Of a DNA stretch of 64,000 nt, positions 3,176-63,925 are shown piece after piece (position 1 is the stretch's first letter; the number at the start of each line of letters is the position of its first letter). The notes under the pieces are model-generated. The model had not been told where the DNA came from, did no database searches, and saw only the letters and a list, made by a program, of their open reading frames with translations. This stretch comes from a virus (Duplodnaviria > Heunggongvirae > Uroviricota > Caudoviricetes): the IMG/VR virus record IMGVR_UViG_3300037088_000797, positions 1-64,000 of that record, one strand, 5' to 3'. The position numbers and the translations under genes were made by a program.

Positions 3176-3466
3176 TTATTCTGCTTTTATATAACGATGA
3201 CCATCAACGTAAACATTATGTTCACAATAAAAACCATCTTTATGCTCTGCACGAGTAAAATATTCACTCCACCAGTTTTCAAAGCGTTCTCTTAATTCAG
3301 TGCCGTCTATATTCAATTCATTAAAAACATCACCCAAATCTGTAAAAGAAAATTCATCTGGATTGTTTGTTTTTTTATTTATTTTATAAACAGCAAGTTT
3401 AAGTGAAGCACAATATGCTTTCCATGCCATTTCTTTAGCTGTTGTAGTTGCTGTAATTTTTACCAT
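3176..3466 (-). CDS. hypothetical protein
   Basis: 96 aa ORF. Confidence 0.4.
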   Translation of the reverse strand: MVKITATTTAKEMAWKAYCASLKLAVYKINKKTNNPDEFSFTDLGDVFNELNIDGTELRERFENWWSEYFTRAEHKDGFYCEHNVYVDGHRYIKAE

Positions 3467-3469
3467 AAT

Positions 3470-3709
3470 TTAAATATAATTTACCCAAAAATACCATAAC
3501 CAATAAATATGATCATGAAACCATCCTTCAATTTTAAGTTTATGATCGTTTTGCCAATTGCCAGTATTACACATGTCACAGTTATTATCGTGAACACCAT
3601 GTCTGCTGCAGATAGAATACCAAGTTTCTTTCTTAAGTCCTTTGCCTCTGACAGTTTCAGTACCTTCAAATTTAACGAACGCCATGCGTTTACTTTGTGC
3701 TCGGTTCAT
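3470..3709 (-). CDS. hypothetical Cys/His-rich protein
   Basis: 79 aa; CSRHGVHDNNCDMCNTGNW cluster suggests metal binding; alternative overlapping frame 3481-3669 is hydrophobic. Confidence 0.35.
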   Translation of the reverse strand: MNRAQSKRMAFVKFEGTETVRGKGLKKETWYSICSRHGVHDNNCDMCNTGNWQNDHKLKIEGWFHDHIYWLWYFWVNYI

Positions 3710-3968
3710 ATGTTTCAGTTATTTTCTTTGTGTTTAAGTCAATAAAGATACAACTATCAAATTCCATATCGCCCCCTCCAAATTCATAGTTTATTCTAAT
3801 ATAATTTTCATCAAACACCTGAAAATTTTTATATCCTCTCCAAGTACCTTCTTGTTTTGGATTATCATCACAATATTTATTAAATGCAGTACGTGCAAAC
3901 GTATCTACATTGTTGTAATGCTCTTTATTCGCAATTACTGCCTTTACCGAATCTTTAATTATTGACAT
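3690..3968 (-). CDS. hypothetical protein
   Basis: ORF 3690-4046 in track; internal ATG at 3968 avoids 62-nt overlap with def gene. Confidence 0.4.
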   Translation of the reverse strand: MSIIKDSVKAVIANKEHYNNVDTFARTAFNKYCDDNPKQEGTWRGYKNFQVFDENYIRINYEFGGGDMEFDSCIFIDLNTKKITETYEPSTK

Positions 3969-3984
3969 GTGCCAAAGATATAAA

Positions 3985-4563
3985 TTATAAATATAATAAA
4001 CAACACTGTTTGTATTTTTTTCCTGAACCACAGGGACATTTATCATTTCTCTGTATGTCTAATGATTTTGGTTGTACAAAATCAATTTCTTCAATACGTT
4101 CTTCAACACCATTAAGATGATTGATTTCATGTTGCCAGACTTGTCCTTCAAAGCCATAATGTAATTCATGGTTAATGCTTTGACCGATTTCATCAAAGTA
4201 ACTAACTCTCACTGCACGACTACGTTCAGCAACAATTCTTCTGCCTCTCCATGTAAGACAACCTTCAACCTTGATTTCTTTCATACCAATGTATTCAATG
4301 ATACGTGGGTCAATGATCAATCGCCAATTTGCCTGTGGATTACCATTATTGTTTATTTCTCTTAAGGCAAATACTCTTGCCATGAATCTTTCACCATCAA
4401 GGTTACACTGATTAGCTGCCAGACCTACTGCATCAAATCTTTCGTATGCATAATTTTTGAACTCTTGAAGTTTCTTTATGTTTTGAATAAAAAACAATTC
4501 AATGTCTTCAATCTCTGGGACTTTTGGTGTCTGTTGGTTTGGTATTACTGCAAATTCGCTCAT
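3985..4563 (-). CDS. def: peptide deformylase with C-terminal SEC-C metal-binding motif
   Basis: All three PDF motifs readable: GLAANQ (motif 1), EGCLTWRG (EGCLS motif 2), QHEINHLNG (HExxH motif 3); C-terminus CPCGSGKKYKQCC matches SecA-type SEC-C zinc motif. Confidence 0.8.
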   Translation of the reverse strand: MSEFAVIPNQQTPKVPEIEDIELFFIQNIKKLQEFKNYAYERFDAVGLAANQCNLDGERFMARVFALREINNNGNPQANWRLIIDPRIIEYIGMKEIKVEGCLTWRGRRIVAERSRAVRVSYFDEIGQSINHELHYGFEGQVWQHEINHLNGVEERIEEIDFVQPKSLDIQRNDKCPCGSGKKYKQCCLLYL

Positions 4564-4955
4564 TTCTTCTCAATTTTTATTAATTTAAGTCCTTCAACAA
4601 GACCCATTTCCAGTGCTTTTTCATGTGAATTAACGTGATAAAATCTTGTATATTCTTCCCATCTGGGAGAATTATTTTCGCCTTTGTAATATACAACAAA
4701 ATGACAATTATACAAATTTTGAATGCAATCATACATCGGTTCAACGTGAATTTTATGAATTTCTCTCAGCCACATTTGCAACAATGCCTGATCTGGTGCT
4801 GAAAACTGATCTTTAGTATTCGTGTGATTATAATTATCTACATGATGTAATCCGATATAATCATCGTATATACCCCAAAGATGTTCAGCACCATTATTAA
4901 ATCCTTTGTCTTTAGCTAAGACTGCTGTTTCTTCTCGAATTGGTTCTTCTCTCAT
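4560..4955 (-). CDS. hypothetical protein
   Basis: 131 aa; 4-nt start/stop overlaps with both neighbours (operon member). Confidence 0.45.
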   Translation of the reverse strand: MREEPIREETAVLAKDKGFNNGAEHLWGIYDDYIGLHHVDNYNHTNTKDQFSAPDQALLQMWLREIHKIHVEPMYDCIQNLYNCHFVVYYKGENNSPRWEEYTRFYHVNSHEKALEMGLVEGLKLIKIEKK

Positions 4956-5776
4956 ACTGTTTGTTTTTTACGTTCAATGTGACTATGTTCGTGGCTTCTT
5001 ATACAAGTTGCACAACTTGAAATAAATACGCCATAAAATATCTTATTAAATTCTTTAAATCTTGCAGGAAAACCACCATCAATATATTCATCAACGTCAG
5101 CATAATTCCATATGCCAAAGCCACATTTGAATATGTCACCAACTTCATCAATAAGAAATGAATACTGGTTCTTTGGATTATGACAATAGCAACCCATCAT
5201 AGAGTATAAACCATATGAATACATTGATCTGCCAATAGGTACTACACTAAAATCACTTTCTTCAAGATCAGAAGTCTTGGTAAGTACTTTATTTTTTTTC
5301 AGTAATTTTGATGCTTTTTCAATATTTTCATTGGTGTGCCACTGATCTTTAGATACCATAACATAGCAATTATCATATTTGCTAACGTGTTTTGCAAATT
5401 CAGGCATATCAACTGCCCAATCACCATTTGTGACCATTCTTGCAATCTTCACTGAAGGCACAAGTATATCAAGTATTTCACGCCAGTCTGGATTGCAATA
5501 CATTTCACCACCCATAAGATTGATCTGGTGAACTTCGTTATTAATTAAAAACTGTGCGATTTTCTTTGCTGTTTCGATAGTCATATGAGTTTCTTTTTTG
5601 GGAGAGCATGAATAACAGCAATGTGAACAGGATTGAGTGCATTTTAATGTGATACGTATGGTTGCATGAAGTTTGCGGGGACACTCTTTCCGTACAGCGC
5701 AAGTTTCGCAATTACAAGTACCTACGCCATTTTTGGCTTTGCATTCTTTCTCCAGACAGATATCACAAGGTTTCAT
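4952..5776 (-). CDS. radical SAM enzyme with extra N- and C-terminal Cys clusters
   Basis: CTQSCSHC = CxxxCxxC radical SAM cluster motif, MGGEM (GGE motif); N-terminal CDICLEKECKAKNGVGTCNCETC and C-terminal CYCH...CGFG...SSCATC cysteine clusters (possible auxiliary Fe-S / SPASM-twitch-like). Confidence 0.7.
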   Translation of the reverse strand: MKPCDICLEKECKAKNGVGTCNCETCAVRKECPRKLHATIRITLKCTQSCSHCCYSCSPKKETHMTIETAKKIAQFLINNEVHQINLMGGEMYCNPDWREILDILVPSVKIARMVTNGDWAVDMPEFAKHVSKYDNCYVMVSKDQWHTNENIEKASKLLKKNKVLTKTSDLEESDFSVVPIGRSMYSYGLYSMMGCYCHNPKNQYSFLIDEVGDIFKCGFGIWNYADVDEYIDGGFPARFKEFNKIFYGVFISSCATCIRSHEHSHIERKKQTV

Positions 5777-5970
5777 TATCGTAATTTCATATGATGAATA
5801 AACTCAAAATTCTTGTCGTTAATACACTCATAACAAATGAGTTTCCATTCAGGATGTTCTTTGAAATGTTCTTCAATGGTGTGTTGATCGAACACTCTTT
5901 TGTGTTCTTCTTCACTCCAAGAGTTACTGAATTTTCCTGTTTCGATATTAAGCCAACAATATTTTTTCAT
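5776..5970 (-). CDS. small CxxC protein, first gene of rSAM-def operon
   Basis: 64 aa, ICYEC motif, ATGA overlap with rSAM gene; preceded by promoter-like motif 5997-6026. Confidence 0.4.
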   Translation of the reverse strand: MKKYCWLNIETGKFSNSWSEEEHKRVFDQHTIEEHFKEHPEWKLICYECINDKNFEFIHHMKLR

Positions 5971-5996
5971 AGAGTAATAATTCTACATTATTATCA

Positions 5997-6026
5997 TTAT
6001 ACGATGTTTTTGTGAAAAGGTTACAC
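5997..6026 (-). promoter_or_regulatory. recurrent promoter-like motif (variant GTGTAACC)
   Basis: ttatacg 5997-6003, ggttacac 6019-6026; upstream of rSAM operon. Confidence 0.45.
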
Positions 6027-6416
6027 TTTTTATAGAAAAAAACTAAGTCACTTAGTAATACGTTTATATAGTCAAAGATAAAGTCCAAGGTAAGGGCAAA
6101 GACCTTTCTCTACACAAAGGCAAAGACAAAAACCAAGTCTTGTTTTTTCCTTCCTCCCGAATAATTATCCCAATCACAATAAGTGAAAGGGTAACTTATT
6201 CTGGCAGTCATGGTCTTTTTTACGAAAAGCCATAAAAAACATTTGGTTTCGTAGAGAAAGCGGTTTTTCCTTTAACGGAGTTATGCGTCCCGGGGGACAC
6301 ATGACTAACTGTCATTTAGATCAATATCTAATTTTATATGTAAGAACGTAGTACTAAGCATAAAAAAGGGTAAACTCGGCTCTTGCTCTATCTACCCTTT
6401 ACCTTAGTTCTTTATT

Positions 6417-7352
6417 TTAGTCCTGAGACTCAGGAAGTTTTTTAATGAATGTGTCAACGACACCTTTGAAACGTGCATCAACCAAGATACGCATTCCTGC
6501 AAGTTCTTTGATTGTTGCCTGACGAGTTTTTTCATACTCATTTTTGATACCCTGAACCTGCTCAGATGCTTTTTTATACTCCATTTCATAAGTAAGGCGA
6601 AGGTCAGAGTTTGTTTTTTCATCCAATGTCTGAGCATCAGCATTGACTTTTGCAATACGTGCGTTCTCTTCTGTGGTCAGGTTTTTCACCTTTGCTTTGA
6701 AGTAATTAACACGCTGTTCGTATCCACGATGAAGTTCAGCAAGTGTTTCATGAAGGGTAAGGAGTTCTTCTGGTGTGTGATGCTTGGTAATTGTAACAGG
6801 TACTTTCTTGTCCTTTTCAATTTCAAACCATTCAACAGCAGGGATTTGTGGCAGTTCGTTTCTCAGACCTGCAAGAATTGAATCCTTGTGAATGAATTCA
6901 CCAATATGTGATGCATATGCTTCGGCTTCGAAATATTCGTTATTTTCAGCAGCAGTAAGTTGTGACCAACCAAACTCTTCCTCAACATTTAATAATACAG
7001 GAGATTTGATATAATCAGGGGTCTTTGGAAATTTAACTGCTGATACGTCAGCAACACCCTTTTTTGTAAGTTGAATTCCGTCAGCTTTTGCCTTGATGTT
7101 CTCCATCAAGAATGCCTGACAAGCATGAAGACTTGCTTTTTCTTTAATCAAGTCAACAACATCGGCAGGTAACTTAACACCTATTTCAACAACAAGAGGT
7201 TCTGTTTCACCAGCAACCTTTACAGTTTTGCTGTAGTTGTTTACTGTTAAAAGTTTTCTTGCAATTTCGAGTGCTCTTTGATGGCAAAGATTAGATACTG
7301 ATTGTGCTTGTGAAAGGCTTAAGCCAGTTGCGGAGAGTGAATTTTTTTTCAT
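6417..7352 (-). CDS. hypothetical protein
   Basis: 311 aa ORF; followed (leftward) by weak hairpin AAGGGTA..TACCCTT + T-run at 6366-6400. Confidence 0.5.
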   Translation of the reverse strand: MKKNSLSATGLSLSQAQSVSNLCHQRALEIARKLLTVNNYSKTVKVAGETEPLVVEIGVKLPADVVDLIKEKASLHACQAFLMENIKAKADGIQLTKKGVADVSAVKFPKTPDYIKSPVLLNVEEEFGWSQLTAAENNEYFEAEAYASHIGEFIHKDSILAGLRNELPQIPAVEWFEIEKDKKVPVTITKHHTPEELLTLHETLAELHRGYEQRVNYFKAKVKNLTTEENARIAKVNADAQTLDEKTNSDLRLTYEMEYKKASEQVQGIKNEYEKTRQATIKELAGMRILVDARFKGVVDTFIKKLPESQD

Positions 7353-7453
7353 GATATTTTCAGTTATTAGGTTTTACAATTATTAATTAGACGACAAAGA
7401 TATATCAGTTTTTTGAATTTCCAAATGTTTTTTAAAAATAATTTAAAATATTT

Positions 7454-7660
7454 TTAATCTTCAATTTCTTCGGGTGCATGAAAATCTCCATCGGCATCAC
7501 AATTTACTGGATACCCATGTTTCATAATGCTAAAATGTCTCAGAGTTCTCTGGTATGTATTATAAAAAAATACATAAGTATACTTGCACACGATTCCCAA
7601 TAAAATTGAAAATCCTAACCAGTGCCAAAAACTACTAAAAATAAATTCGAGTACTTTCAT
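7454..7660 (-). CDS. small membrane protein
   Basis: 68 aa with hydrophobic segment SFWHWLGFSILLGIV. Confidence 0.3.
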   Translation of the reverse strand: MKVLEFIFSSFWHWLGFSILLGIVCKYTYVFFYNTYQRTLRHFSIMKHGYPVNCDADGDFHAPEEIED

Positions 7661-10634: not shown

Positions 10635-10665
10635 TTATACGATGATGAATTAAAAAAGGTTACAA
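10635..10665 (-). promoter_or_regulatory. recurrent promoter-like motif
   Basis: ttatacg 10635-10641, ggttacaa 10658-10665. Confidence 0.5.
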
Positions 10666-10702
10666 AAAAAGGGAGAATTTCTTCTCCCTTCTCCAATTTT
10701 CA

Positions 10703-10882
10703 TTATCCCACTGGATGTCCTGTGGACATCGCCACAATCTGTGTTACCAAGTCAAAGAAACGACTGGTAATTATTGTCAGCATTCCGATAGTAAACATTC
10801 CCATGATTCCTATCGCTATTAAAGCCTCAATTGGTTCAACCAATTTCAACTTCTCCATGAGGATACTCCAGAGTTCTTTCAT
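10703..10882 (-). CDS. small membrane protein (59 aa), possible NfeD-like partner of SPFH protein
   Basis: MKELWSILMEKLKLVEPIEALIAIGIMGMFTIGMLTIITSRFFDL...; starts 3 nt after SPFH gene stop; just below ORF-track cutoff. Confidence 0.35.
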   Translation of the reverse strand: MKELWSILMEKLKLVEPIEALIAIGIMGMFTIGMLTIITSRFFDLVTQIVAMSTGHPVG

Positions 10883-10884
10883 GA

Positions 10885-12051
10885 CTATTTACCTGCTGCT
10901 AACCTGTCATTGATATCCATCAGGAATTTAATGCTGATAGCATCCATTGGATTTCCACCTTTACTATCACCGTTGATAAGTATCTGAGGATATTTAACAC
11001 CTGCCAATGCCTGTGCAACGCCAACTTTGGTTTTGTATTCCCATTCGATCTTTTCCTGTGGAGTAAGACCTGCAGCAACTTTTAAACGAGCAGCTTCAGC
11101 TTGTCCTTGACCGATAAAGATAGCAGCTTTCCTGTTTTCATCTTCCTGTTTTGCATTAAGGGCAGCAACTTCATACAATTTCTGTGCGGTAGTTACTTCC
11201 TGAACTTTTTCAACTTCCTTCTCATATTTAGCTTTGGCTACGTTTGCAAGTCCCTGCTGTTCTGCAGTTAAAGCATCCTGTTTAGCACGAATAGCTTCCT
11301 GTTTTGAAAGTTCGGTCTTCATTGCTTCGTCTTTACGTTTAGCAATCATTTCTTCTACTTTAGTATCAAACTGTGGCACATCAATAACACACTCAAGTAC
11401 TTCACAACCTAATTGCTGAAGTCTGTTTGGTGTTCTCAATGGCTGACCGTCAGCACCGTACACAAGTACTGTTACACGCTGCTCTTCGATATCACCTGTT
11501 GAAGTAGTTTTACTTACTTTATCTGATTTAGTTACATATATACCATTTCTTAACTGATCTTCAACTGCCTGTTGGAAGAGAGCCAAGGTGGTGTATGCAT
11601 CCTGCGCTGAACGTAAGTTAGCGGAAAGTTTAATGGCGTTATTTACAATAGGTACTATACCAGATGCTATGAAATGGTCGAAACCACCTGCATATTCTCT
11701 TTTAAGACTAATAGCACCTTCTTGTGTAGTCGGTAATTTAACCCTGATAAGACCAGAGATTTTGGCTTTCGAACCATCATTAAAAATAACGTCAACAGCA
11801 TCAATGTCAGCACTACCATCACCTTTATGGCTACCAATGCCACAGGTTGTTACGTTTTTGTACTCAGTAATAGTACCGAACCATTGAAAGTAAGTACCAG
11901 CAGTTTGCCTAACAGACATATTACCAGTTATGGCAGCTTGTTTAACTTGAAACCAGCCAGCATCATTAGTTTCTAAAATTCCTCTCATTGCCACTAAAAG
12001 GGCAATAGCGAGAACCACGAACACAATTGCAAAGATTTTTTTGTTTTTCAT
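10885..12051 (-). CDS. SPFH/band-7 (stomatin/prohibitin/HflKC-like) domain membrane protein
   Basis: N-terminal TM helix, band-7-like core, long Ala/Glu/Lys-rich coiled-coil (AEAARLKVAAG, QEAIRAKQDALTAEQQ) typical of SPFH family. Confidence 0.7.
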   Translation of the reverse strand: MKNKKIFAIVFVVLAIALLVAMRGILETNDAGWFQVKQAAITGNMSVRQTAGTYFQWFGTITEYKNVTTCGIGSHKGDGSADIDAVDVIFNDGSKAKISGLIRVKLPTTQEGAISLKREYAGGFDHFIASGIVPIVNNAIKLSANLRSAQDAYTTLALFQQAVEDQLRNGIYVTKSDKVSKTTSTGDIEEQRVTVLVYGADGQPLRTPNRLQQLGCEVLECVIDVPQFDTKVEEMIAKRKDEAMKTELSKQEAIRAKQDALTAEQQGLANVAKAKYEKEVEKVQEVTTAQKLYEVAALNAKQEDENRKAAIFIGQGQAEAARLKVAAGLTPQEKIEWEYKTKVGVAQALAGVKYPQILINGDSKGGNPMDAISIKFLMDINDRLAAGK

Positions 12052-26317: not shown

Positions 26318-28258
26318 TTATTGACTTAAAAATTTTATTATCTTATCTTCATATGAATATGATAATTTATCGTTAATCTCGGTTTGTTTTAAATTCAAAC
26401 CATTTGTATTGCAAATTTCAAGAAAATGTTGAATTGTAATTCCATTGTTATCAACAGCATATTTAGTCAATGCTTTATATGTACCCATGTTTTTATTTAA
26501 AAGGTCTTTGGCTCTGGTTTTTTCTTCTTTTAATATTCCTTCAATAATTTCATCGGTTTTCTCTGTGCTATAATTAAGTTCTTGTGCCTGTGGTGCTTCT
26601 TTCTTAATTACTCTTGAAACAATGCCATCCATGCCATAATTTCTAACATATCTACCTGCAGCATCTGTCGCATTTGATATATCGGCATGTGCACCAACTG
26701 ATTTATAATCTTCACTAAAAACAAGTTCTTCTGCAACTAAACCACCTAAATAAATTGCGATACGATTTCTAAGAAACATTTTGTTTTCAATTGAACTATG
26801 ATTAATAACAAAACCTTCAGATAAACCAGAACTGTTTAAATTAATCTGTCTTGGCGGAGTTTTATATAAAATAGCATATAATAATGCATGACCCAATTCA
26901 TGAACAGTTACCAGTATTTTCTCGTCTTTTGTTTTTCCGCTACGGATATTATCTATGTCAAGCACAACATCTTTTTCGTATCTTTTTCCGTCAATATATG
27001 TGACTAATTGATTATCAATAATATCAAGAGACATTTTATCTAAGTCATTTACTAAACATAAATATAAAAAGAATGGTAAATTGCTGCCAAGCAGATTATA
27101 AACCGTTGAAATTGCTGGTCTTACGCCCTGTGTTGGAAACACACCGTTCCTATAAATTGCATCATAGATATTATCAAATAAAGTGATCTTAATATTATGT
27201 TCACTTTCAACCCTGTTAAGAATTAAAGCACAGTTTCTTTTAATAATTTCGTAATAACTTTTCTTATCCAAACAGGGATAAATAACATGGTTATTTCCAA
27301 ATCTTGCTATTTGTTCTGGCTTGAATTGTTTAGCCAAAGCATTTTTAATATGAATAATGTTGATTCTTTTGCTGAGTTCATGATATATATCGGCATCCCT
27401 TTCACTGTCTTCAACTTCATCAGCCATTGTAAATGCTTCATCAAGGTTGCCTGATATGAAGATAAGAAGTTTTTCATATGACTTGCCTTCATTGACATTG
27501 CCCAGCTTAAGACTGCTCTCCATGATCTCCATACGCTGTTCAAGACTCATTTTCATAATTTCTTCACCAGAAATATCCAAATTAAGCATTTTTTTGAATC
27601 TATTTGCAGTCCAATAAGATGTTTTATATTTATAATGTTTAATTTTCTTTTCTTCGTTAGTTATTTGTACCTTTTTACCTTTTTTTACTATTTTTGGTGG
27701 TTTATCTTCAATTTCATCATCAGGGTCATTTTCTCTTCTATCTGAATAATACATTTCTTCAAACAATAAGTCCAATATTTCTGTCCTACGTTGGGAATTA
27801 TTTTGAAATCTACCATCAGAAAGAAGCATCCAAATATCATTAAAATATTTATTTTCAACCATTGCACCGTTTTCATCTATGGTGCGATAACGTTGAATTT
27901 CGTCCAGAAGAAGTATGGCGGGTTCTTTCGAATCAATGCCAGAACTTTCCAGAAAATTTTCAATGTTTTTAGAATAATCGTTCTTCATGTCCATCTGGAT
28001 TTCAATGAACTTATCGGTAAACTTCAGCAGTTTAACCAAATTACGAACAAGATCGGTTTTACCAACACCTGTGATGCCCCAGAGAGAAACAATAAGAGGT
28101 CTAAACTGAAGTTCTGGAGTAAGATACCACAACGAAATGCTGTCAATTATTTTGTCAATTACTTCATCAATTCCAATAAATTTTTCTTTCAATGCTATTT
28201 TAACTTCTTCAAGTACTTCTCTTTTTGACTTAATGCGTTCAAGAAATTCGTTATTCAT
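26318..28258 (-). CDS. soluble FtsH-like AAA+ ATPase / M41 zinc metalloprotease
   Basis: Walker A GITGVGKTD, Walker B AILLLDEIQ; C-terminal TVHELGHALL (HExxH) plus IAIYLGGLVAEELVF and SVGAHADISNATDAAGRYVRNYGM closely parallel FtsH HEAGHA / LYGGRLAEE / STGASNDIKVAT blocks; no TM segments. Confidence 0.75.
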   Translation of the reverse strand: MNNEFLERIKSKREVLEEVKIALKEKFIGIDEVIDKIIDSISLWYLTPELQFRPLIVSLWGITGVGKTDLVRNLVKLLKFTDKFIEIQMDMKNDYSKNIENFLESSGIDSKEPAILLLDEIQRYRTIDENGAMVENKYFNDIWMLLSDGRFQNNSQRRTEILDLLFEEMYYSDRRENDPDDEIEDKPPKIVKKGKKVQITNEEKKIKHYKYKTSYWTANRFKKMLNLDISGEEIMKMSLEQRMEIMESSLKLGNVNEGKSYEKLLIFISGNLDEAFTMADEVEDSERDADIYHELSKRINIIHIKNALAKQFKPEQIARFGNNHVIYPCLDKKSYYEIIKRNCALILNRVESEHNIKITLFDNIYDAIYRNGVFPTQGVRPAISTVYNLLGSNLPFFLYLCLVNDLDKMSLDIIDNQLVTYIDGKRYEKDVVLDIDNIRSGKTKDEKILVTVHELGHALLYAILYKTPPRQINLNSSGLSEGFVINHSSIENKMFLRNRIAIYLGGLVAEELVFSEDYKSVGAHADISNATDAAGRYVRNYGMDGIVSRVIKKEAPQAQELNYSTEKTDEIIEGILKEEKTRAKDLLNKNMGTYKALTKYAVDNNGITIQHFLEICNTNGLNLKQTEINDKLSYSYEDKIIKFLSQ

Positions 28259-47395: not shown

Positions 47396-47628
47396 TTTCA
47401 CGCATTTCGGTATTTATAGGTATGAATACCGAAATGCATTTTAGAACAAAACTTTACTGGAATAACTTATCTAAGGATGATAGACTGGAATTATTGCAAA
47501 AATACAACTTTTGGGGTGGTTTTAGCGATTATCTGTATGATTATATACCAGAAGACCTTAAAGAAGTAATATCGCTTAAAATCGATTTAAAGGATGAAAT
47601 TGACGAGAAATCTACAATGATCTCTTAA
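47386..47628 (+). CDS. hypothetical protein
   Basis: 80 aa ORF; 3' end overlaps convergent patatin gene. Confidence 0.35.
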   Translation: MGLISRISVFIGMNTEMHFRTKLYWNNLSKDDRLELLQKYNFWGGFSDYLYDYIPEDLKEVISLKIDLKDEIDEKSTMIS

Positions 47629-48553
47629 TTGGTAAAAAAACCTCTACTCTGTTTTTGTCAAAGGCAGTATTATAACCTTCTTCCCACCATGCAAGCATTT
47701 CTTCTTGATTAAATACCATTGAACTTCTGCTTAACCTTCTTGGTAACCAATATATGGTAACTTTTGCACCTTGTTTGTTAAGTCTTTTTATTCTTTCATA
47801 AAAATATTCATGTTCAATATCGTAACGTGTTGCCGAAATATTCGTAATAACATTTTCAATAATATTATTGATTTTATTTCCTTCAGATTTTTCATCTATA
47901 CGTGCTCGATGCAACACTATATCGATCTCTTTGAAACCTTTCATCATTAATTGATCTATGCCAATTAAATCTGATATTCCACCATTACTCCATTGACCAA
48001 CATGAAAACTACCAGTGTTATTATTCCAACCCATATTCACTAAAGAAGTAAAAAATGGAAAATTGGCACTACACCACATCCAGTCTTTAAACTCTTCAAG
48101 TTCAATATCTGCAGAACTAAAATAATGAATTCTTGAAGGTACTTGTGAGTAATTCTGTGCACCCACGAGAATTTCTTTATTTAAAATTCTTAATTCATCA
48201 AAAATTTCTTGGGGAAAAAATTTATCGATTGTATTTCTTAAGACATTAGATGTACGTACAGATTTTTGATTTAATAATAAACTTGTTATTACGGCAAATT
48301 TATTTATTTTACCTTTTTTATTTAAAGGCATTGGCTTGTACCAACATTTGTCAAACACATCCTCATTCTTTATTGAGGTATATCTTGTTTTAAGTATTTC
48401 CCATTCTTTTACTGCCGTAAACGGTCCTAAAAGATTTCCTGTTGATACTCCAACAATAGTATCATAATCCTCATTAATTCTTGCAAGTGTACCACCACCA
48501 AACGCTCCCCAGCTACCACCCCCTGAAATTAATAATGCACGTTTAGAACTCAT
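47612..48553 (-). CDS. patatin-like phospholipase
   Basis: Glycine-rich oxyanion motif ISGGGSWGAFGGG and nucleophile elbow GVSTG (GxSxG). Confidence 0.7.
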   Translation of the reverse strand: MSSKRALLISGGGSWGAFGGGTLARINEDYDTIVGVSTGNLLGPFTAVKEWEILKTRYTSIKNEDVFDKCWYKPMPLNKKGKINKFAVITSLLLNQKSVRTSNVLRNTIDKFFPQEIFDELRILNKEILVGAQNYSQVPSRIHYFSSADIELEEFKDWMWCSANFPFFTSLVNMGWNNNTGSFHVGQWSNGGISDLIGIDQLMMKGFKEIDIVLHRARIDEKSEGNKINNIIENVITNISATRYDIEHEYFYERIKRLNKQGAKVTIYWLPRRLSRSSMVFNQEEMLAWWEEGYNTAFDKNRVEVFLPIKRSL

Positions 48554-60598: not shown

Positions 60599-63500
60599 TT
60601 ATTCAATTGTTAATGATGATATACCGTTTTCATCCAACTGCACATTAATGAGATAATCAGGGTTAATTTCTTCTTTAGGTTCGATTACCAAAACCTTTCT
60701 CATACCTGCCTTTATCATTTGAAGTATTTCAATAAATTCTTCAACGCTATCATTAAGCAACTTACCCATTATTTCATCAAGCAAGAATATTGATGGTTTT
60801 GCTTTAACGTTAATTTGATTTAATGCATATTTCATAACAATACTGGAGAATGTTCTTTCTTTACCGCTTGCACTAATACAATCAATGATTGCTGTTGGTC
60901 TATTATTATAAGCCAGTTTAGGACGTAAATCTTCCTGATCAAGCCATACTTTAAATGAAGCAACTGATAATATATCCTGAAGGGTTGTGTTGATCTTAGG
61001 TAAAATATAGTTTGCAAGCATTTGTCTTGGTATGCCATCCCTGTGAACACATTTTTTGTAAAGTTCTCTTATTTTGTCTTGATATTCCTGCGTTTTGAAT
61101 TCAACAATTAGTATTTGATTACCTTTGATCTTTATTTGTTTTTCACCAACACTTGACTTTTTAATTAAAAGTGTTTCTTTTTCATCTGATTCTTCGTCTT
61201 CAAGTTCAGTTAATTTTAATTTAGCTGCAGCAATACCTTTCTCGATCTTCTGGTTCTCTATGATTTGTTTCAGACTATTCTCATGGTTATCAATCTTTTG
61301 TTGAAGTAGTGTTATGTGAAGTTCTTCGTTCTGAATTTTTGTTGGTATCTGATCTAATTCTGTCTGAAGTTCTTTGCGTTTTTCAACATCATTTTTTTCA
61401 TTGGTAAGCGTACCAATTTCTTTTAAAACACTTTCCATTTCAAGAGAAGCAACTCTAATTTCTTCATTAATTTTTGCAATTGCTTTATCTTCATCAATAA
61501 TGTTAAGTTCATGTACCACTTTATCTAAATGTTCTTTTGCATTAATTTTATCAGCAATTGGAAACATTTGATCTTCTTTCAATTTAACTGTTTTGAGAAT
61601 ATGATCTATGTGTTCTTGTTTATTAATTGCCTGTCCGCATTGACTACAAATCTTGCTGTTCTTTAGATCAACGATTTCTTTTTTTAATTTAGCACCCTCT
61701 TCTTTGAGTCTGAAAATATCACCATTAATTATTTCAATTGCATGATCTTCATTTGTTTTTGTTTGCTCATGTGTTTTGATAAGCATTTTTTGTTGATATT
61801 CATTTGTTTTATGAATATCTTTCTTTTCAATAAGCGTTTTTAGTTTCTCAGCGTCATATGTTTCCTTTAATGGGACAATACTTTGCTCTATAACCGCTTT
61901 TCGTGCGTTGTGCTTGTCGATCTCCTTATTATGTGCAGCAATAGTCTCTTTAGTGGTATCTACGTCCAGATTGTAAATCTCAGGGTCTATCGTGTATAAT
62001 TTCTTATTTAAATCTTCTACGTATTTTCTTCCTTTGGTTATTTTCTCACGAATCTCTGGAAGTCTAATGTTTTCAATTGTTGAAACAATTGATTCAAGAA
62101 TTATAATTTCTTCACCTAACGTCACATTCTGTAACGTAGTTGTTTCAACATTACAATTTACTCTTGGTTTTTCATTAACTTTCTTTTCGTATGTTTTATA
62201 TCCAGTCAGTTTCTTATCAAAAATGTCCAGTCCGCTATCAAACAAAAGTGAATCAATGAATATAGCCATATCGTTAGATAATATTCTGTTAAGCGTATCA
62301 GATGTCGTCATAACGATACGCATAAAATTATCATAACTACCTATGATGCTTTCTATCTTTTTCTGTGTAAGTTTTCTGCGATCTTCATCAAGTTTTTCTA
62401 ATGAAGTATTTTCATTCATTTCTTCATCAGGGTTTGTAAGAGTATAATAACTCAATGTAGTTGGAGCACCATTAATTTCTCCGCCTTTGGTTTTTGTAAT
62501 TTCTGTTCTCTTTTTGATGCCGAAAAATTCACCGTTGGCTTCGATCACAAGATATCCTTCACAGAAAATTGCTCTGTTTCTGTTATTTACAAAACGTTGA
62601 TCGCCATATTTCATACGTGTCTCAGTCTCTAAAGTTTTGCCAAAAAGAATATAGGAAATAAGTTTCATAATGGTTGTTTTTCCAGCAGTATTTTCTCCTG
62701 TGATTTGAAATAAACCATCCATGTTACGCCAATCAATTTCTAATTCTTCATATGACATAAAATTCTTACCACCAAACTTAACTACATTCCATTCAATACT
62801 TTGATCTTCACTTGTATCAATTAATGCAAGTATTTCTTCGTCTAATGCAATAATATCTTCAATAAGTTGTGAGTCAGTACCTATTTTTGATAAATATTCT
62901 CTGAATATTTCATGTTGAACGTTCTGATCTGTTATATTTTGTAATGTAATGTTTTCATTAATGTCAATTTTTTCGCTTTCAATGAATTCGTTTTTGTGAG
63001 AAACAATTACACCAATAAATTTACTTTTAACATATTCAGCCAATTTTCTTTCGGCTTCTTTAACTCTTGTTTGTGGCAATGTACCCCAGATGAATCTAAC
63101 TTTCATGTTCTTAGTTGGATTCGGGATTTCAAAGTCAAGATCATTAAAATCAGTATATTGATTTATACGAACATTTTTAAATGAAAATTCGCTTTCAATA
63201 GGTATCTCTTGAACTGATTTATTTGGAATATCCCAAAGTAAATAGCCGTGGAAATTATCATCGCCTTCAGTTACGTCCTGTGCAATAAGTGAGCCACAAT
63301 ATGCTTTAGTATGAGCTTTATCAAGATATTGAAATTTATGTATATCACCAAAGAACGAATACTGACCTTTAAAATCAGTTAATTTATAATATGATTTACT
63401 TTTCATTTCAAAATTCGTAGTTGACTTGCAACCATTCACAGGGTCATGAAAAAGATCAATGAATGTGAACTCAGGTGAACCAGCAGGGTCAAGTTTTTTA

Positions 63501-63925
63501 CCGTCCTTCGTTTTCCAAGGATTGTTTTTGGGGTCGCCATGATGCCAGACCACCCACATTATGTTTTCATCAGCAAAAAAGCCAGTCTTATCGTAATATA
63601 TTACTTTTGGATTGTCGAGAGTCTTTACAATTGCCTTTACAGAGTCAACTCTCTTAAGACTTTTCTTTCTACAATCATGGTTACCTCTGGTAATGCGAAC
63701 TGGCGCAATTTTACTCAGATCATTGAGTAATTCATGAGCCATAATCAATTGCTCGCCTTGCAGATCGAGATAATCATGAACTAAGTCACCGACAATTACA
63801 ATTCTATCGGGTTTTATTTGCTGTAATGATTTAATTAAATTATTGAATACAAATTGATATTCTTCATTGCGGGTAGGTGTCTTACGGATGTGAATATCTG
63901 CGACATGTGCTATTGTTTTAATCAT
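60599..63925 (-). CDS. fused SbcD-SbcC (Mre11-Rad50-like) nuclease-ATPase
   Basis: N-terminal calcineurin-like phosphoesterase motifs VADIHI, GDLVHD, GNHD; central Walker A GENTAGKTT; zinc-hook CSQCGQ in long coiled-coil; C-terminal Walker B/D-loop IFLLDE. Confidence 0.75.
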   Translation of the reverse strand: MIKTIAHVADIHIRKTPTRNEEYQFVFNNLIKSLQQIKPDRIVIVGDLVHDYLDLQGEQLIMAHELLNDLSKIAPVRITRGNHDCRKKSLKRVDSVKAIVKTLDNPKVIYYDKTGFFADENIMWVVWHHGDPKNNPWKTKDGKKLDPAGSPEFTFIDLFHDPVNGCKSTTNFEMKSKSYYKLTDFKGQYSFFGDIHKFQYLDKAHTKAYCGSLIAQDVTEGDDNFHGYLLWDIPNKSVQEIPIESEFSFKNVRINQYTDFNDLDFEIPNPTKNMKVRFIWGTLPQTRVKEAERKLAEYVKSKFIGVIVSHKNEFIESEKIDINENITLQNITDQNVQHEIFREYLSKIGTDSQLIEDIIALDEEILALIDTSEDQSIEWNVVKFGGKNFMSYEELEIDWRNMDGLFQITGENTAGKTTIMKLISYILFGKTLETETRMKYGDQRFVNNRNRAIFCEGYLVIEANGEFFGIKKRTEITKTKGGEINGAPTTLSYYTLTNPDEEMNENTSLEKLDEDRRKLTQKKIESIIGSYDNFMRIVMTTSDTLNRILSNDMAIFIDSLLFDSGLDIFDKKLTGYKTYEKKVNEKPRVNCNVETTTLQNVTLGEEIIILESIVSTIENIRLPEIREKITKGRKYVEDLNKKLYTIDPEIYNLDVDTTKETIAAHNKEIDKHNARKAVIEQSIVPLKETYDAEKLKTLIEKKDIHKTNEYQQKMLIKTHEQTKTNEDHAIEIINGDIFRLKEEGAKLKKEIVDLKNSKICSQCGQAINKQEHIDHILKTVKLKEDQMFPIADKINAKEHLDKVVHELNIIDEDKAIAKINEEIRVASLEMESVLKEIGTLTNEKNDVEKRKELQTELDQIPTKIQNEELHITLLQQKIDNHENSLKQIIENQKIEKGIAAAKLKLTELEDEESDEKETLLIKKSSVGEKQIKIKGNQILIVEFKTQEYQDKIRELYKKCVHRDGIPRQMLANYILPKINTTLQDILSVASFKVWLDQEDLRPKLAYNNRPTAIIDCISASGKERTFSSIVMKYALNQINVKAKPSIFLLDEIMGKLLNDSVEEFIEILQMIKAGMRKVLVIEPKEEINPDYLINVQLDENGISSLTIE

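Follow-up and report, generated by a model that had tools for sequence, protein, structure and literature searches.

The window analysed here, a 64-kb stretch of Caudoviricetes phage DNA, encodes a peptide deformylase (PDF) that ends in a SecA-type SEC-C motif, and judging from its sequence and those of its homologs this fusion (PDF-SEC-C) is genuine and conserved. The gene closes a chain of four that also codes for a small protein (g1), a radical SAM enzyme (rSAM) and a third protein (g3). The domain content of these genes, their conservation and the lack of conserved linkage among them are direct observations. We consider it fairly probable that they are explained jointly by an accessory block in which the genes are independent cargo, with PDF-SEC-C docked on the ribosome and the rSAM acting as a stand-alone enzyme, and not by a biosynthetic operon.

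The first-pass annotation had placed four open reading frames at positions 3985-5970, and all are present, every one on the minus strand (Table 1). It had also described them as chained by ATGA overlaps, which is correct for the junctions at 4952-4955 and 4560-4563 but not for that between g1 and rSAM, a 1-nt TAATG overlap at 5776. The tight chaining of the four genes is not distinctive, as overlaps are the norm in the window: 34 of its 111 same-strand junctions overlap (11 as ATGA, 10 by one nucleotide) and a further 33 are spaced 0-10 nt. Downstream, the co-directional block continues beyond the PDF-SEC-C gene. A scan of positions 3400-7500, in which terminators were scanned too, gave no sigma-70 promoters above chance. 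The Bacteroidota-type promoter motif (TTTG..TAnnTTTG) was marginally enriched, with 15 matches against 7.4 expected, and its sole minus-strand match in the scanned region is at 7395-7425, upstream of g0; these matches are not decisive for transcription units.

Table 1. Features of the PDF-SEC-C locus, in positions of the window; residue numbers are those of the protein concerned
Feature	Position	Strand	Description
g0	6417..7352	minus	311 aa, conserved anchor upstream of RNA and slot
Structured RNA candidate	6029..6408	minus	in the g0-g1 interval, directly preceding the gene chain
g1	5776-5970	minus	64 aa
rSAM (radical SAM enzyme)	4952-5776	minus	274 aa
rSAM modules	4952..5776	minus	N-terminal 6-7-Cys module, CX3CX2C core, C-terminal twitch-like 4-Cys module
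Radical SAM cluster motif C46-x3-C50-x2-C53	5618..5641	minus	CTQSCSHC, then invariant C54
g3	4560-4955	minus	131 aa
PDF-SEC-C (peptide deformylase and SEC-C)	3985-4563	minus	192 aa
PDF catalytic domain	4105..4479	minus	residues 29-153
PDF motifs			I GLAANQ 47-52; II EGCLT 100-104; III HEINH 145-149
SEC-C / SecA-like metal-binding motif	3997..4050	minus	residues 172-189, RNDKCPCGSGKKYKQCC

The description of the deformylase as bona fide, with all three motifs, was borne out. Pfam finds Pep_deformylase (PF01327) at 67.7 bits (cutoff 22.8; 1.1e-18), a phmmer search against solved PDFs reached 4e-12, and motifs I to III are present and invariant in homologs. Across 30-35 aligned homologs the invariant columns are G47, A49, N51, Q52, E100, C102, L103, Q144, H145, E146 and H149, and the metal-ligand residues (Cys and two His) are likewise invariant in 30-35 homologs. 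The protein falls below the NCBIfam equivalog cutoffs (TIGR00079, 59.4 against 103.95 bits; NF001159, 58.8 against 125) and on these scores appears to be a divergent peptide deformylase, not a housekeeping-type ortholog.

The same annotation had put a SecA-type SEC-C motif at the deformylase C-terminus, and this too holds: PF02810 matches at 39.1 bits (cutoff 20.4; 6.8e-10). The tail, CPCGSGKKYKQCC, is invariant in homologs and aligns to the SecA peptides 1SX0, 1TM6 and 1OZB with 16/18 identity, 1SX0 being the peptide of the E. coli SecA metal-binding domain (MBD; VGRNDPCPCGSGKKYKQC). Residues C176, C178, C187, C188, K183, Y184 and K185 are invariant in aligned homologs (CPC...KYKxCC). Among 814 homologs, PF01327 and PF02810 occur together in 119 of the top 120, many of which lie on 100-370 kb contigs. 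A genome scan with patterns specific to this PDF-SEC-C family found the CxC...C[CH] tail kept in 33 of 40 family loci; related PDFs without the tail occur at L070-L073. One locus (L057) has an HNH insertion inside the SEC-C motif, for which a group I intron as the cause found no Rfam support. PADLOC reported SEC-C tails on E2-like proteins.

PDF genes rank with the most abundant of the auxiliary genes that viruses carry. Like E. coli Def, a type 1B PDF, PDF-SEC-C has the PDF fold and the three catalytic motifs (GxGxAAxQ, EGCLS-like, HExxH), but it is divergent, is predicted to lack the alpha-3 helix and carries a SecA-type zinc knuckle instead. The AF2 model (pLDDT 93.9; about 89-94 in the tail) has no helix from the catalytic helix (137-151) to residue 188, so that the C-terminal ribosome-binding alpha-3 helix is missing in the model. 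This helix mediates ribosome binding in E. coli PDF and is not found in viral PDFs (PMC5591237); in type 1B PDFs it binds uL22/uL32 (PMC5591237, PMC12690207). The Vp16 PDF of a Vibrio phage (5MTC) and the PDF of cyanophage S-SSM7 (3UWA) resemble PDF-SEC-C in being phage-encoded, in keeping the motifs and in having no ribosome-binding C-domain; both stop a few residues past motif III, whereas PDF-SEC-C adds a linker of about 20 residues and the SEC-C motif. A BFVD search returned no close structural relative, the best matches being distant PDFs with 17-25% identity and a TM of about 0.5-0.6.

SecA MBD, SEC-C-bearing methionine aminopeptidases (MetAP; NF008970), YchJ and YecA share with PDF-SEC-C a near-identical RND.CPCGSGKKYKxC[CH], conserved Ser and Tyr included, and the NCBIfam MetAP model NF008970 matches the SEC-C motif of PDF-SEC-C with its N-terminus. 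MetAP is also alike in bearing the motif on a co-translational N-terminal processing enzyme. Unlike in these proteins, the motif here sits on a deformylase C-terminus and in a phage, and our literature search found no publication describing such an arrangement. The SecA MBD binds SecB and ribosomes, and the MBD is also present on many bacterial MetAPs (10.1101/613315). By analogy with what has been proposed for SecA MBD and the MBD-carrying MetAPs, the SecA-type knuckle, which stands in place of the alpha-3 helix and presumably binds Zn or Fe, may dock PDF-SEC-C on the ribosome near the exit tunnel. The enzyme, which appears catalytically intact, would then strip the N-formyl group from nascent proteins, and docking would maintain efficient deformylation while phage proteins are made in a burst.

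That the tail is not a ribosome anchor but instead binds a SecB-like chaperone or SecA partners, senses redox state or metal, or locks a truncated fold seems to us somewhat unlikely. The SecA MBD does use the same KKYK residues to bind SecB, and in vivo it binds iron (10.1101/613315), YchJ, which carries SEC-C motifs, is reported to be a ROS-sensing factor (PMC13377102), and in Vp16 PDF the C-terminal residue (Ile) makes up for the absent C-domain (PMC5591237). The high confidence with which the tail is modelled suggests packing on the core, and it could be an intramolecular structural element; the related PDFs that occur without it also fit a role other than anchoring. However, its presence on MetAP, another ribosome-working enzyme of nascent chains, is a precedent for docking, and the SEC-C motif occupies exactly the position of the ribosome-binding helix in type 1B PDFs. 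SecB is known mainly from Proteobacteria, whereas the phages considered here apparently infect Bacteroidota. The ribosome-docked reading bears on how nascent chains are reached by viral PDFs, which lack the C-terminal region that tethers bacterial PDF to the ribosome (PMC5591237). A large PDF family of huge phages in which this region is swapped for a near-perfect copy of SecA MBD would be a concrete, testable answer, and PDF-SEC-C offers a natural experiment on the role of SEC-C outside SecA, parallel to the SEC-C-bearing MetAPs.

The rSAM matches Radical_SAM (PF04055) at 35.9 bits (cutoff 29.5), and its cluster motif is invariant in 33 sequences. It had been described as SPASM/twitch-like with extra Cys clusters, of which both clusters are real and conserved (N-terminal C4, C7, C21, C23, C26 and C32; C-terminal C198, C218, C255 and C258), while a full SPASM domain is lacking: no SPASM model matched at E<0.1 and the seven-Cys motif is not present. 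In the C-terminal module only the spacings C198-x14-G-x4-C218 and C255-xx-C258 are kept, and residues past C258 vary. The enzyme is not a glycyl-radical activase (PflA, NrdG) or QueE; homology to these would have counted against the earlier description. Its nearest relatives are YydG/EpeE, SuiB and PqqE, it appears to be of the twitch/SPASM class, and it belongs to no curated family. The peptide epimerase YydG/EpeE (twitch/T-SPASM) is its best sequence relative (1.4e-19) and shares the CxxxCxHCC(F/Y)xxSP signature, a single C-terminal auxiliary-cluster-type Cys set, small size and the lack of an RRE. However, only the N-terminal half of rSAM aligns, the YydG model TIGR04078 scoring 58.8 bits against a 300-bit cutoff over residues 40-149 only, and rSAM has the extra N-terminal 6-7-Cys module. 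Also unlike YydG/EpeE, it stands alone in huge phages, with no adjacent YydF-like precursor, protease or ABC transporter. Compared with the small-molecule twitch enzymes BtrN, SpeY, BlsE and MoaA, it shows no sequence-level membership and has no biosynthetic neighbours pointing to a small-molecule pathway.

The family numbers 265 hits, with 63 cluster representatives at E<1e-30. Remote relatives from a profile search are likewise unannotated, BFVD returned generic phage rSAMs only, and PADLOC gave only a weak similarity of the core to pVip (24 bits). The family is an orphan one, rich in Cys, apparently of twitch type and characteristic of jumbo phages. As a stand-alone, probably twitch-type enzyme, the rSAM of the window most likely abstracts hydrogen via a 5'-deoxyadenosyl radical and would bind one auxiliary [4Fe-4S] cluster at the C-terminus, with an extra N-terminal Cys module. 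Its substrate, of whatever class, is probably not encoded beside it.

Whether the four genes belong together was addressed by tblastn over 32 rSAM and 29 PDF-SEC-C loci. As the locus scans relied on patterns, divergent members of a family may have escaped them, and the counts of absence are therefore upper-bound estimates: neither PDF, g1 nor g3 was found within 6 kb of rSAM in 30 of 32 rSAM loci, and no rSAM was found near PDF-SEC-C in 28 of 29. The two scans had a single IMG/VR contig in common. In INPHARED, LR756500.1 has an rSAM match and no PDF match, and LR745206.1 a PDF-SEC-C match and no rSAM match. Clustering of all ORFs at 33 rSAM loci yielded no conserved partner, the small ORFs that looked conserved being antisense frames of the rSAM gene itself. 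The clade to which the window belongs (60% or more identity in rSAM) has a shuffled gene order: extra genes are inserted in L121, in L122 rSAM and PDF are 2.7 kb apart, in L123 PDF is upstream of and directly adjacent to rSAM, the two are also directly adjacent in L149, and L042 and L043 are PDF-SEC-C loci without rSAM. Since no more than about 4 kb separates rSAM from PDF-SEC-C in several of these rearranged versions, they may have a clade-specific functional link.

The chain had been suggested to be a RiPP-like or protein-modifying cassette, in which g1 would be a precursor crosslinked or epimerised by rSAM, with g3 and PDF-SEC-C processing the product, for example by N-terminal deformylation. 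We regard this proposal as most unlikely. Although g1 had been called a small CxxC protein, its homologs do not keep the cysteines: each of C5, C46 and C49 is variable and replaced among them, the invariant residues being GKFS.SW, P40, KLI.Y, D52, F55, F57 and M61. Restricted to a close clade, g1 has only 11 homologs, compared with at least 265 of rSAM, and the two are not co-conserved. An 83-aa gene separates g1 from rSAM in L121/L010, in L042 g3 paralogs come straight after g1 and rSAM is missing, and in L128 neither rSAM nor PDF lies within 5 kb of g1; where rSAM lies inside a tRNA array, no ORF adjoins it. The four-gene locus showed no domain of RRE, SPASM, protease or transporter type, the YydG score is far under its cutoff, and the overlaps are of the routine kind. 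An annotation that makes rSAM a RiPP maturase and g1 its precursor should be avoided. As for g3, it belongs to phrog_12005 (PHROG match 9.9e-20), has tandem paralogs in L042, L043 and L064, and has homologs in Cellulophaga and Flavobacterium phage records that contain no rSAM or PDF match.

The structured RNA of about 380 nt has an MFE z-score of -6.1 and follows g0 homologs in at least 11 loci. RNAalifold gives 60 pairs, 38 of them with changes on both sides and with 96.3% of cells paired, and a covariation score of 0.552 against 0.08-0.13 for slid controls. Rfam had no match for this RNA and none in a scan of the window; we propose it as a previously undescribed RNA and a candidate new class of phage ncRNA. 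Its partner gene g0 has no Pfam or PHROG match and lies upstream of PDF-SEC-C in L044, L047, L050-L057, L075 and L121-L123. In this phage group the conserved layout runs from g0 through the RNA to a variable slot, which contains 1-10 small genes and usually has PDF-SEC-C as its last. In the window the slot holds g1, the orphan rSAM and g3, probably as independent cargo genes. It is conceivable, though very doubtful, that the RNA and g0 together form a new phage ribonucleoprotein.

A shared theme of translation is conceivable, the target of rSAM being a nucleoside of tRNA, nascent chains, or else a translation factor or ribosomal protein, alongside PDF-SEC-C and the RNA ligase genes that the slot contains in L121 and L122. 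The genes for rSAM are often near tRNA genes (within 6 kb in 14 of 32 loci and within 300 nt in 9; after clustering at 65%, in 8 and 4 of 19 clusters, respectively), whereas in the PDF-SEC-C control loci the corresponding counts are 3 and 0 of 29. In L016, L017, L019, L021, L022 and L041 rSAM is the only ORF inside an array of 16-27 tRNAs, on the same strand, and a tRNA-Met lies 24 nt from it in L034 and 164 nt in L032. Nevertheless, we think such a role unlikely. The known rSAM enzymes of tRNA and rRNA have distant folds (RlmN 7.5, Cfr 7.5, RimO 7.2, QueE 7.2), tRNA arrays are often found in accessory-gene regions, so that nearness to them may be a matter of genome architecture, over half of the rSAM clusters have no tRNA nearby, and a tRNA scan found none in the 64-kb window. 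The repeated occurrence of rSAM in phage tRNA arrays and its position next to PDF in several clade members lead to a broader and very doubtful reading, in which the slot past the RNA is a translation-takeover module, PDF-SEC-C docking on host ribosomes and rSAM modifying tRNA, nascent or ribosomal proteins. If true, it would be co-translational radical chemistry of a kind not known in any virus.

In the account that we favour, of independent cargo, the phage would be a huge or jumbo one, and the region would fall within a long run of small accessory genes that all point the same way. The window also encodes a Dda-like helicase, a DNA ligase, an SbcCD-like protein and an FtsH-like protease, and a megablast of the region against INPHARED phages gave no match. 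The host is probably a member of the Bacteroidota, as hinted by the phages of Flavobacterium and Cellulophaga that carry g3 homologs and by Bacteroidota/Sphingobacterium MAG bins.

The C-terminal SecA-type metal-binding motif (SEC-C) that the first-pass annotation read on a peptide deformylase (PDF) is borne out. The protein, PDF-SEC-C, matches both Pfam families (Pep_deformylase, 67.7 bits; SEC-C, 39.1 bits), and both domains are present in 119 of the 120 best of its 814 homologs, which are mostly 183-199 aa long, many of them on contigs of 100-370 kb. An identical protein is recorded from a 178.5-kb contig. PDF-SEC-C is a divergent PDF, as it falls below the curated NCBIfam PDF equivalog cutoff (59.4 vs 103.95 bits). 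Two alignments, with 30 and 35 members, show no variation in the catalytic motifs GLAANQ, EGCL and QHE.NH or in the tail, RN..CPC....KYK.CC. The tail matches the metal-binding domain (MBD) peptide of Escherichia coli SecA (1SX0, VGRNDPCPCGSGKKYKQC) at 16 of 18 positions, and its CC ending is shared with Bacillus subtilis SecA. It is kept in 33 of 40 family loci; related PDFs lacking it are seen in L070-L073. As a variant of a known enzyme, the fusion is real and conserved, and it is apparently undescribed: PDFs of huge phages were reported earlier with the SEC-C tail unmentioned (PMC7162821), a 2025 survey of accessory PDFs mentions neither SEC-C nor SecA, and full-text literature searches turned up no publication in which deformylase, SEC-C and phage are connected.

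E. coli PDF needs its alpha-3 helix to bind ribosomes in vivo, a region missing from viral PDFs (PMC5591237; PMC12690207). In the AlphaFold model of PDF-SEC-C (pLDDT 93.9) nothing corresponds to the alpha-3 helix seen in type 1B PDFs; a short strand and then coil connect the catalytic helix (residues 137-151) to the knuckle. The SecA MBD binds SecB and ribosomes, and a SecA-like MBD is found in many bacterial methionine aminopeptidases (10.1101/613315). The SEC-C motif of PDF-SEC-C is matched by the N-terminus of the NCBIfam methionine aminopeptidase model NF008970. We propose that the tail may act as an alternative ribosome anchor, a clear and testable mechanism for this enzyme.

The sole INPHARED relative of PDF-SEC-C (48% identity) is in the uncultured huge phage LR745206.1 (634,780 bp); for the genomes above 634 kb that it describes, PMC7162821 gives Bacteroidetes as the predicted hosts. 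Family-specific patterns, run over 185,579 species-representative genomes, matched only four MAG contigs (35-375 kb), whose bins are Bacteroidota, Sphingobacterium, Cellvibrionaceae and Paceibacterota. One of the four, the 362,763-bp contig (L124/L010/L044), is viral in IMG/VR (UViG_3300029288_000055) and was deposited in GenBank within a MAG named 'Candidatus Paceibacterota' (JBAZIW010000001.1); it looks like a mis-binned huge phage. In L057 (5980-7167) and L062 (5998-7167) an HNH_3 endonuclease domain of ~210 aa, conserved between the two at the protein level, lies in frame within the SEC-C motif, between CPCG(S) and KKYKxCC; neither intein termini nor a group I intron was detected there. 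In L069 (5746-6585) the open frame of the PDF-SEC-C domain also encodes, upstream of it, a ~55-aa N-terminal EF-Tu GTP-binding fragment (PF00009, 1.5e-10). In L125 (3633-8129; 375-kb contig, Bacteroidota MAG) a PDF domain of this family is embedded (residues 474-600) in a polyvalent protein of 1499 aa, which has ART-PolyVal and GNAT domains as well and no SEC-C tail.

Features of the window and their coordinates
Feature	Position	Strand	Length	Remark
PDF-SEC-C	3985-4563	minus	192 aa	
g3	4560-4955	minus	131 aa	
rSAM	4952-5776	minus	274 aa	
g1	5776-5970	minus	64 aa	
Structured RNA candidate	6029-6408	minus	~380 nt	between g0 and g1 (446-nt gap)
g0	6417-7352		311 aa	no family match
FtsH-like AAA+/M41 protease	26318-28258	minus		
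Patatin-like phospholipase	47612-48553	minus		
Metallophosphoesterase-SbcC fusion (SbcCD-like)	60599-63925	minus	1108 aa	

The radical SAM enzyme (rSAM) does carry the extra N- and C-terminal Cys clusters first noticed in it. Across 33 homologs (48-91% identity) the conserved positions are an N-terminal module (C4, C7, (C12), C21, C23, C26, C32), the cluster cysteines C46, C50 and C53 followed by C54, then C94, and a C-terminal set ((C196), C198-x14-G-x4-C218, C255-xx-C258). Judged from sequence, this pattern appears to fit a single-cluster twitch domain and not the seven-Cys SPASM motif, and no SPASM model in Pfam or NCBIfam matches the protein. A housekeeping activase or QueE was considered and rejected because the fold-comparison values for PflA activase (7.4) and QueE (7.2) are far below those for SuiB (15.8), PqqE (14.4), ChlB (14.2), SkfB (14.1), BlsE (13.6), EpeE (13.5), BtrN (12.9), viperin (12.6) and anSME (12.3). 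The enzyme scores far below all curated NCBIfam cutoffs. An exhaustive profile search gave 63 cluster representatives at E<1e-30, along with a shell of equally unannotated ~250-aa relatives that have no N-terminal Cys module. The enzyme is probably a new twitch-class member. In EpeE an extended twitch domain houses a single auxiliary cluster, and a Cys serves as H-atom donor (PMC13012085); by analogy a similar radical mechanism is plausible for rSAM. Some automatic or public gene calls, for the window, for L002 (4980-5612) and for several homologs called at 202-211 aa with no Pfam match, start rSAM at the internal Met65, losing CX3CX2C and the N-terminal module; the first 64 residues are conserved, which shows that the true product is the one of 274 aa. 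On the 442-kb phage contig of L035, a further and distant rSAM-like stretch (10655-10975; 32% identical to residues 40-147) is found 3.8 kb downstream of the family member.

Transfer RNA genes lie within 6 kb in 14 of 32 rSAM loci and within 300 nt in nine. In six loci on contigs of ~95-185 kb (L016, L017, L019, L021, L022, L041; rSAM at ~6001-6820), rSAM is the sole ORF amid 16-27 tRNA genes on the same strand. It is also in or beside tRNA arrays in L031, L032, L034, L013 and L015, with tRNA-Met or tRNA-Ile 24-275 nt away (tRNA-Met at 24 nt in L034 and 164 nt in L032). After clustering at 65% identity, the fractions are 4/19 clusters within 300 nt and 8/19 within 6 kb, as against 0/29 and 3/29 for PDF-SEC-C control loci. 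A tRNA scan found no tRNA gene in the window. This proximity suggests, and does not prove, that rSAM is co-expressed with, or acts on, the translation apparatus.

It had been suggested that four genes chained by ATGA overlaps, encoding the 64-aa Cys-containing peptide g1, rSAM, the 131-aa protein g3 and PDF-SEC-C, form a translationally coupled, RiPP-like or protein-modifying cassette. All four genes exist and overlap; read from the DNA, the rSAM/g3 and g3/PDF-SEC-C junctions are ATGA, while g1/rSAM is TAATG with a 1-nt overlap. By a crude gene call the window holds 122 genes at ~95% coding density, with overlaps at 34 of 111 same-strand junctions (11 ATGA, 10 of one nucleotide) and spacings of 0-10 nt at another 33, and the packed block runs on past the PDF gene. 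Genuine as it is, the chaining is thus the general style of the genome rather than the mark of a special operon.

Gene content across loci likewise leaves the cassette reading unsupported, though the underlying observation was largely right. Among 32 IMG/VR rSAM loci (contigs of 23-501 kb), tblastn found g1, g3 and PDF absent within 6 kb in 30, and the full set in one, the 77%-identical relative L010, where extra genes separate every pair. Conversely, 28 of 29 PDF-SEC-C loci are without rSAM, the exception being on the same contig as L010. That is the one contig common to both scans, among about ten contigs >200-300 kb per side; in INPHARED, LR756500.1 (462 kb) matches rSAM without PDF-SEC-C and LR745206.1 the reverse. 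Homologs of g1 number only 11, and none of its three cysteines is conserved. Homologs of g1 occur without nearby rSAM or PDF (L128) or beside g3 paralogs without rSAM (L042), and phages of Cellulophaga and Flavobacterium encode homologs of g3 (phrog_12005). Within the window's own clade the order is reshuffled: L121 has g0, RNA ligase, g1, an 83-aa gene, rSAM, a 138-aa gene, a g3-like gene and PDF; L122 has 2.7 kb with an RNA ligase between rSAM and PDF; PDF is directly upstream of rSAM in L123 and immediately follows it in L149; and in L150 no PDF lies downstream of rSAM. Cargo genes in a hypervariable slot behave in this way. A functional link between rSAM and PDF within this clade is a minority possibility, their repeated proximity being the sole remaining hint.

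The conserved frame of the slot includes g0, which precedes PDF-SEC-C in L044, L047, L050-L057 and L075, with PDFs 51-74% identical to that of the window. Rather than being a spacer, the g0-g1 gap shares 88.6% identity with L121 and, over ~380 nt, ~68-70% with at least ten further loci, always straight after g0. The RNA folds much better than shuffled sequence (MFE z = -6.1), and RNAalifold on 11 sequences gives 60 consensus pairs, of which 38 vary on both sides, with 96.3% of cells paired. The covariation score, 0.552, is reached by none of 500 shuffles (slid controls, 0.08-0.13). The structure is closed by a 16-bp stem and contains an internal long-range helix of 10 bp as well as a 5' hairpin that resembles a terminator and has a conserved loop (GAGCACAAGCCGAG); no match was found in Rfam. 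A three-block motif of this RNA occurs on 16 IMG/VR contigs, 11 of them also with PDF-SEC-C. In the loci compared, at least one gene always lies between RNA and PDF, its identity varying by locus; g1, rSAM and g3 are this phage's own filling of the slot. The RNA deserves separate follow-up.

Elsewhere the window (GC ~31%) is phage-like in content, its products including a Dda-like helicase, an ATP-dependent DNA ligase and an SPFH protein. Downstream of PDF, a 118-aa ORF (3690-4046, minus strand) overlaps it by 62 nt as called; starting at Met27 (3968) would abolish the overlap, and the L121 homolog aligns to residues 27-113 only. Its CP12 match (Pfam, 20.9 bits against a 22.7 cutoff) is probably spurious. 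An RNA ligase gene (PF09414) is in the slot of L121 (2460-3515), L010 (~4460-5515) and L122 (5221-6261) and is cleanly absent from the window; it is inserted directly 3' of the structured RNA in L121 and L010, and the L010 product also has an HNH-like N-terminal motif.
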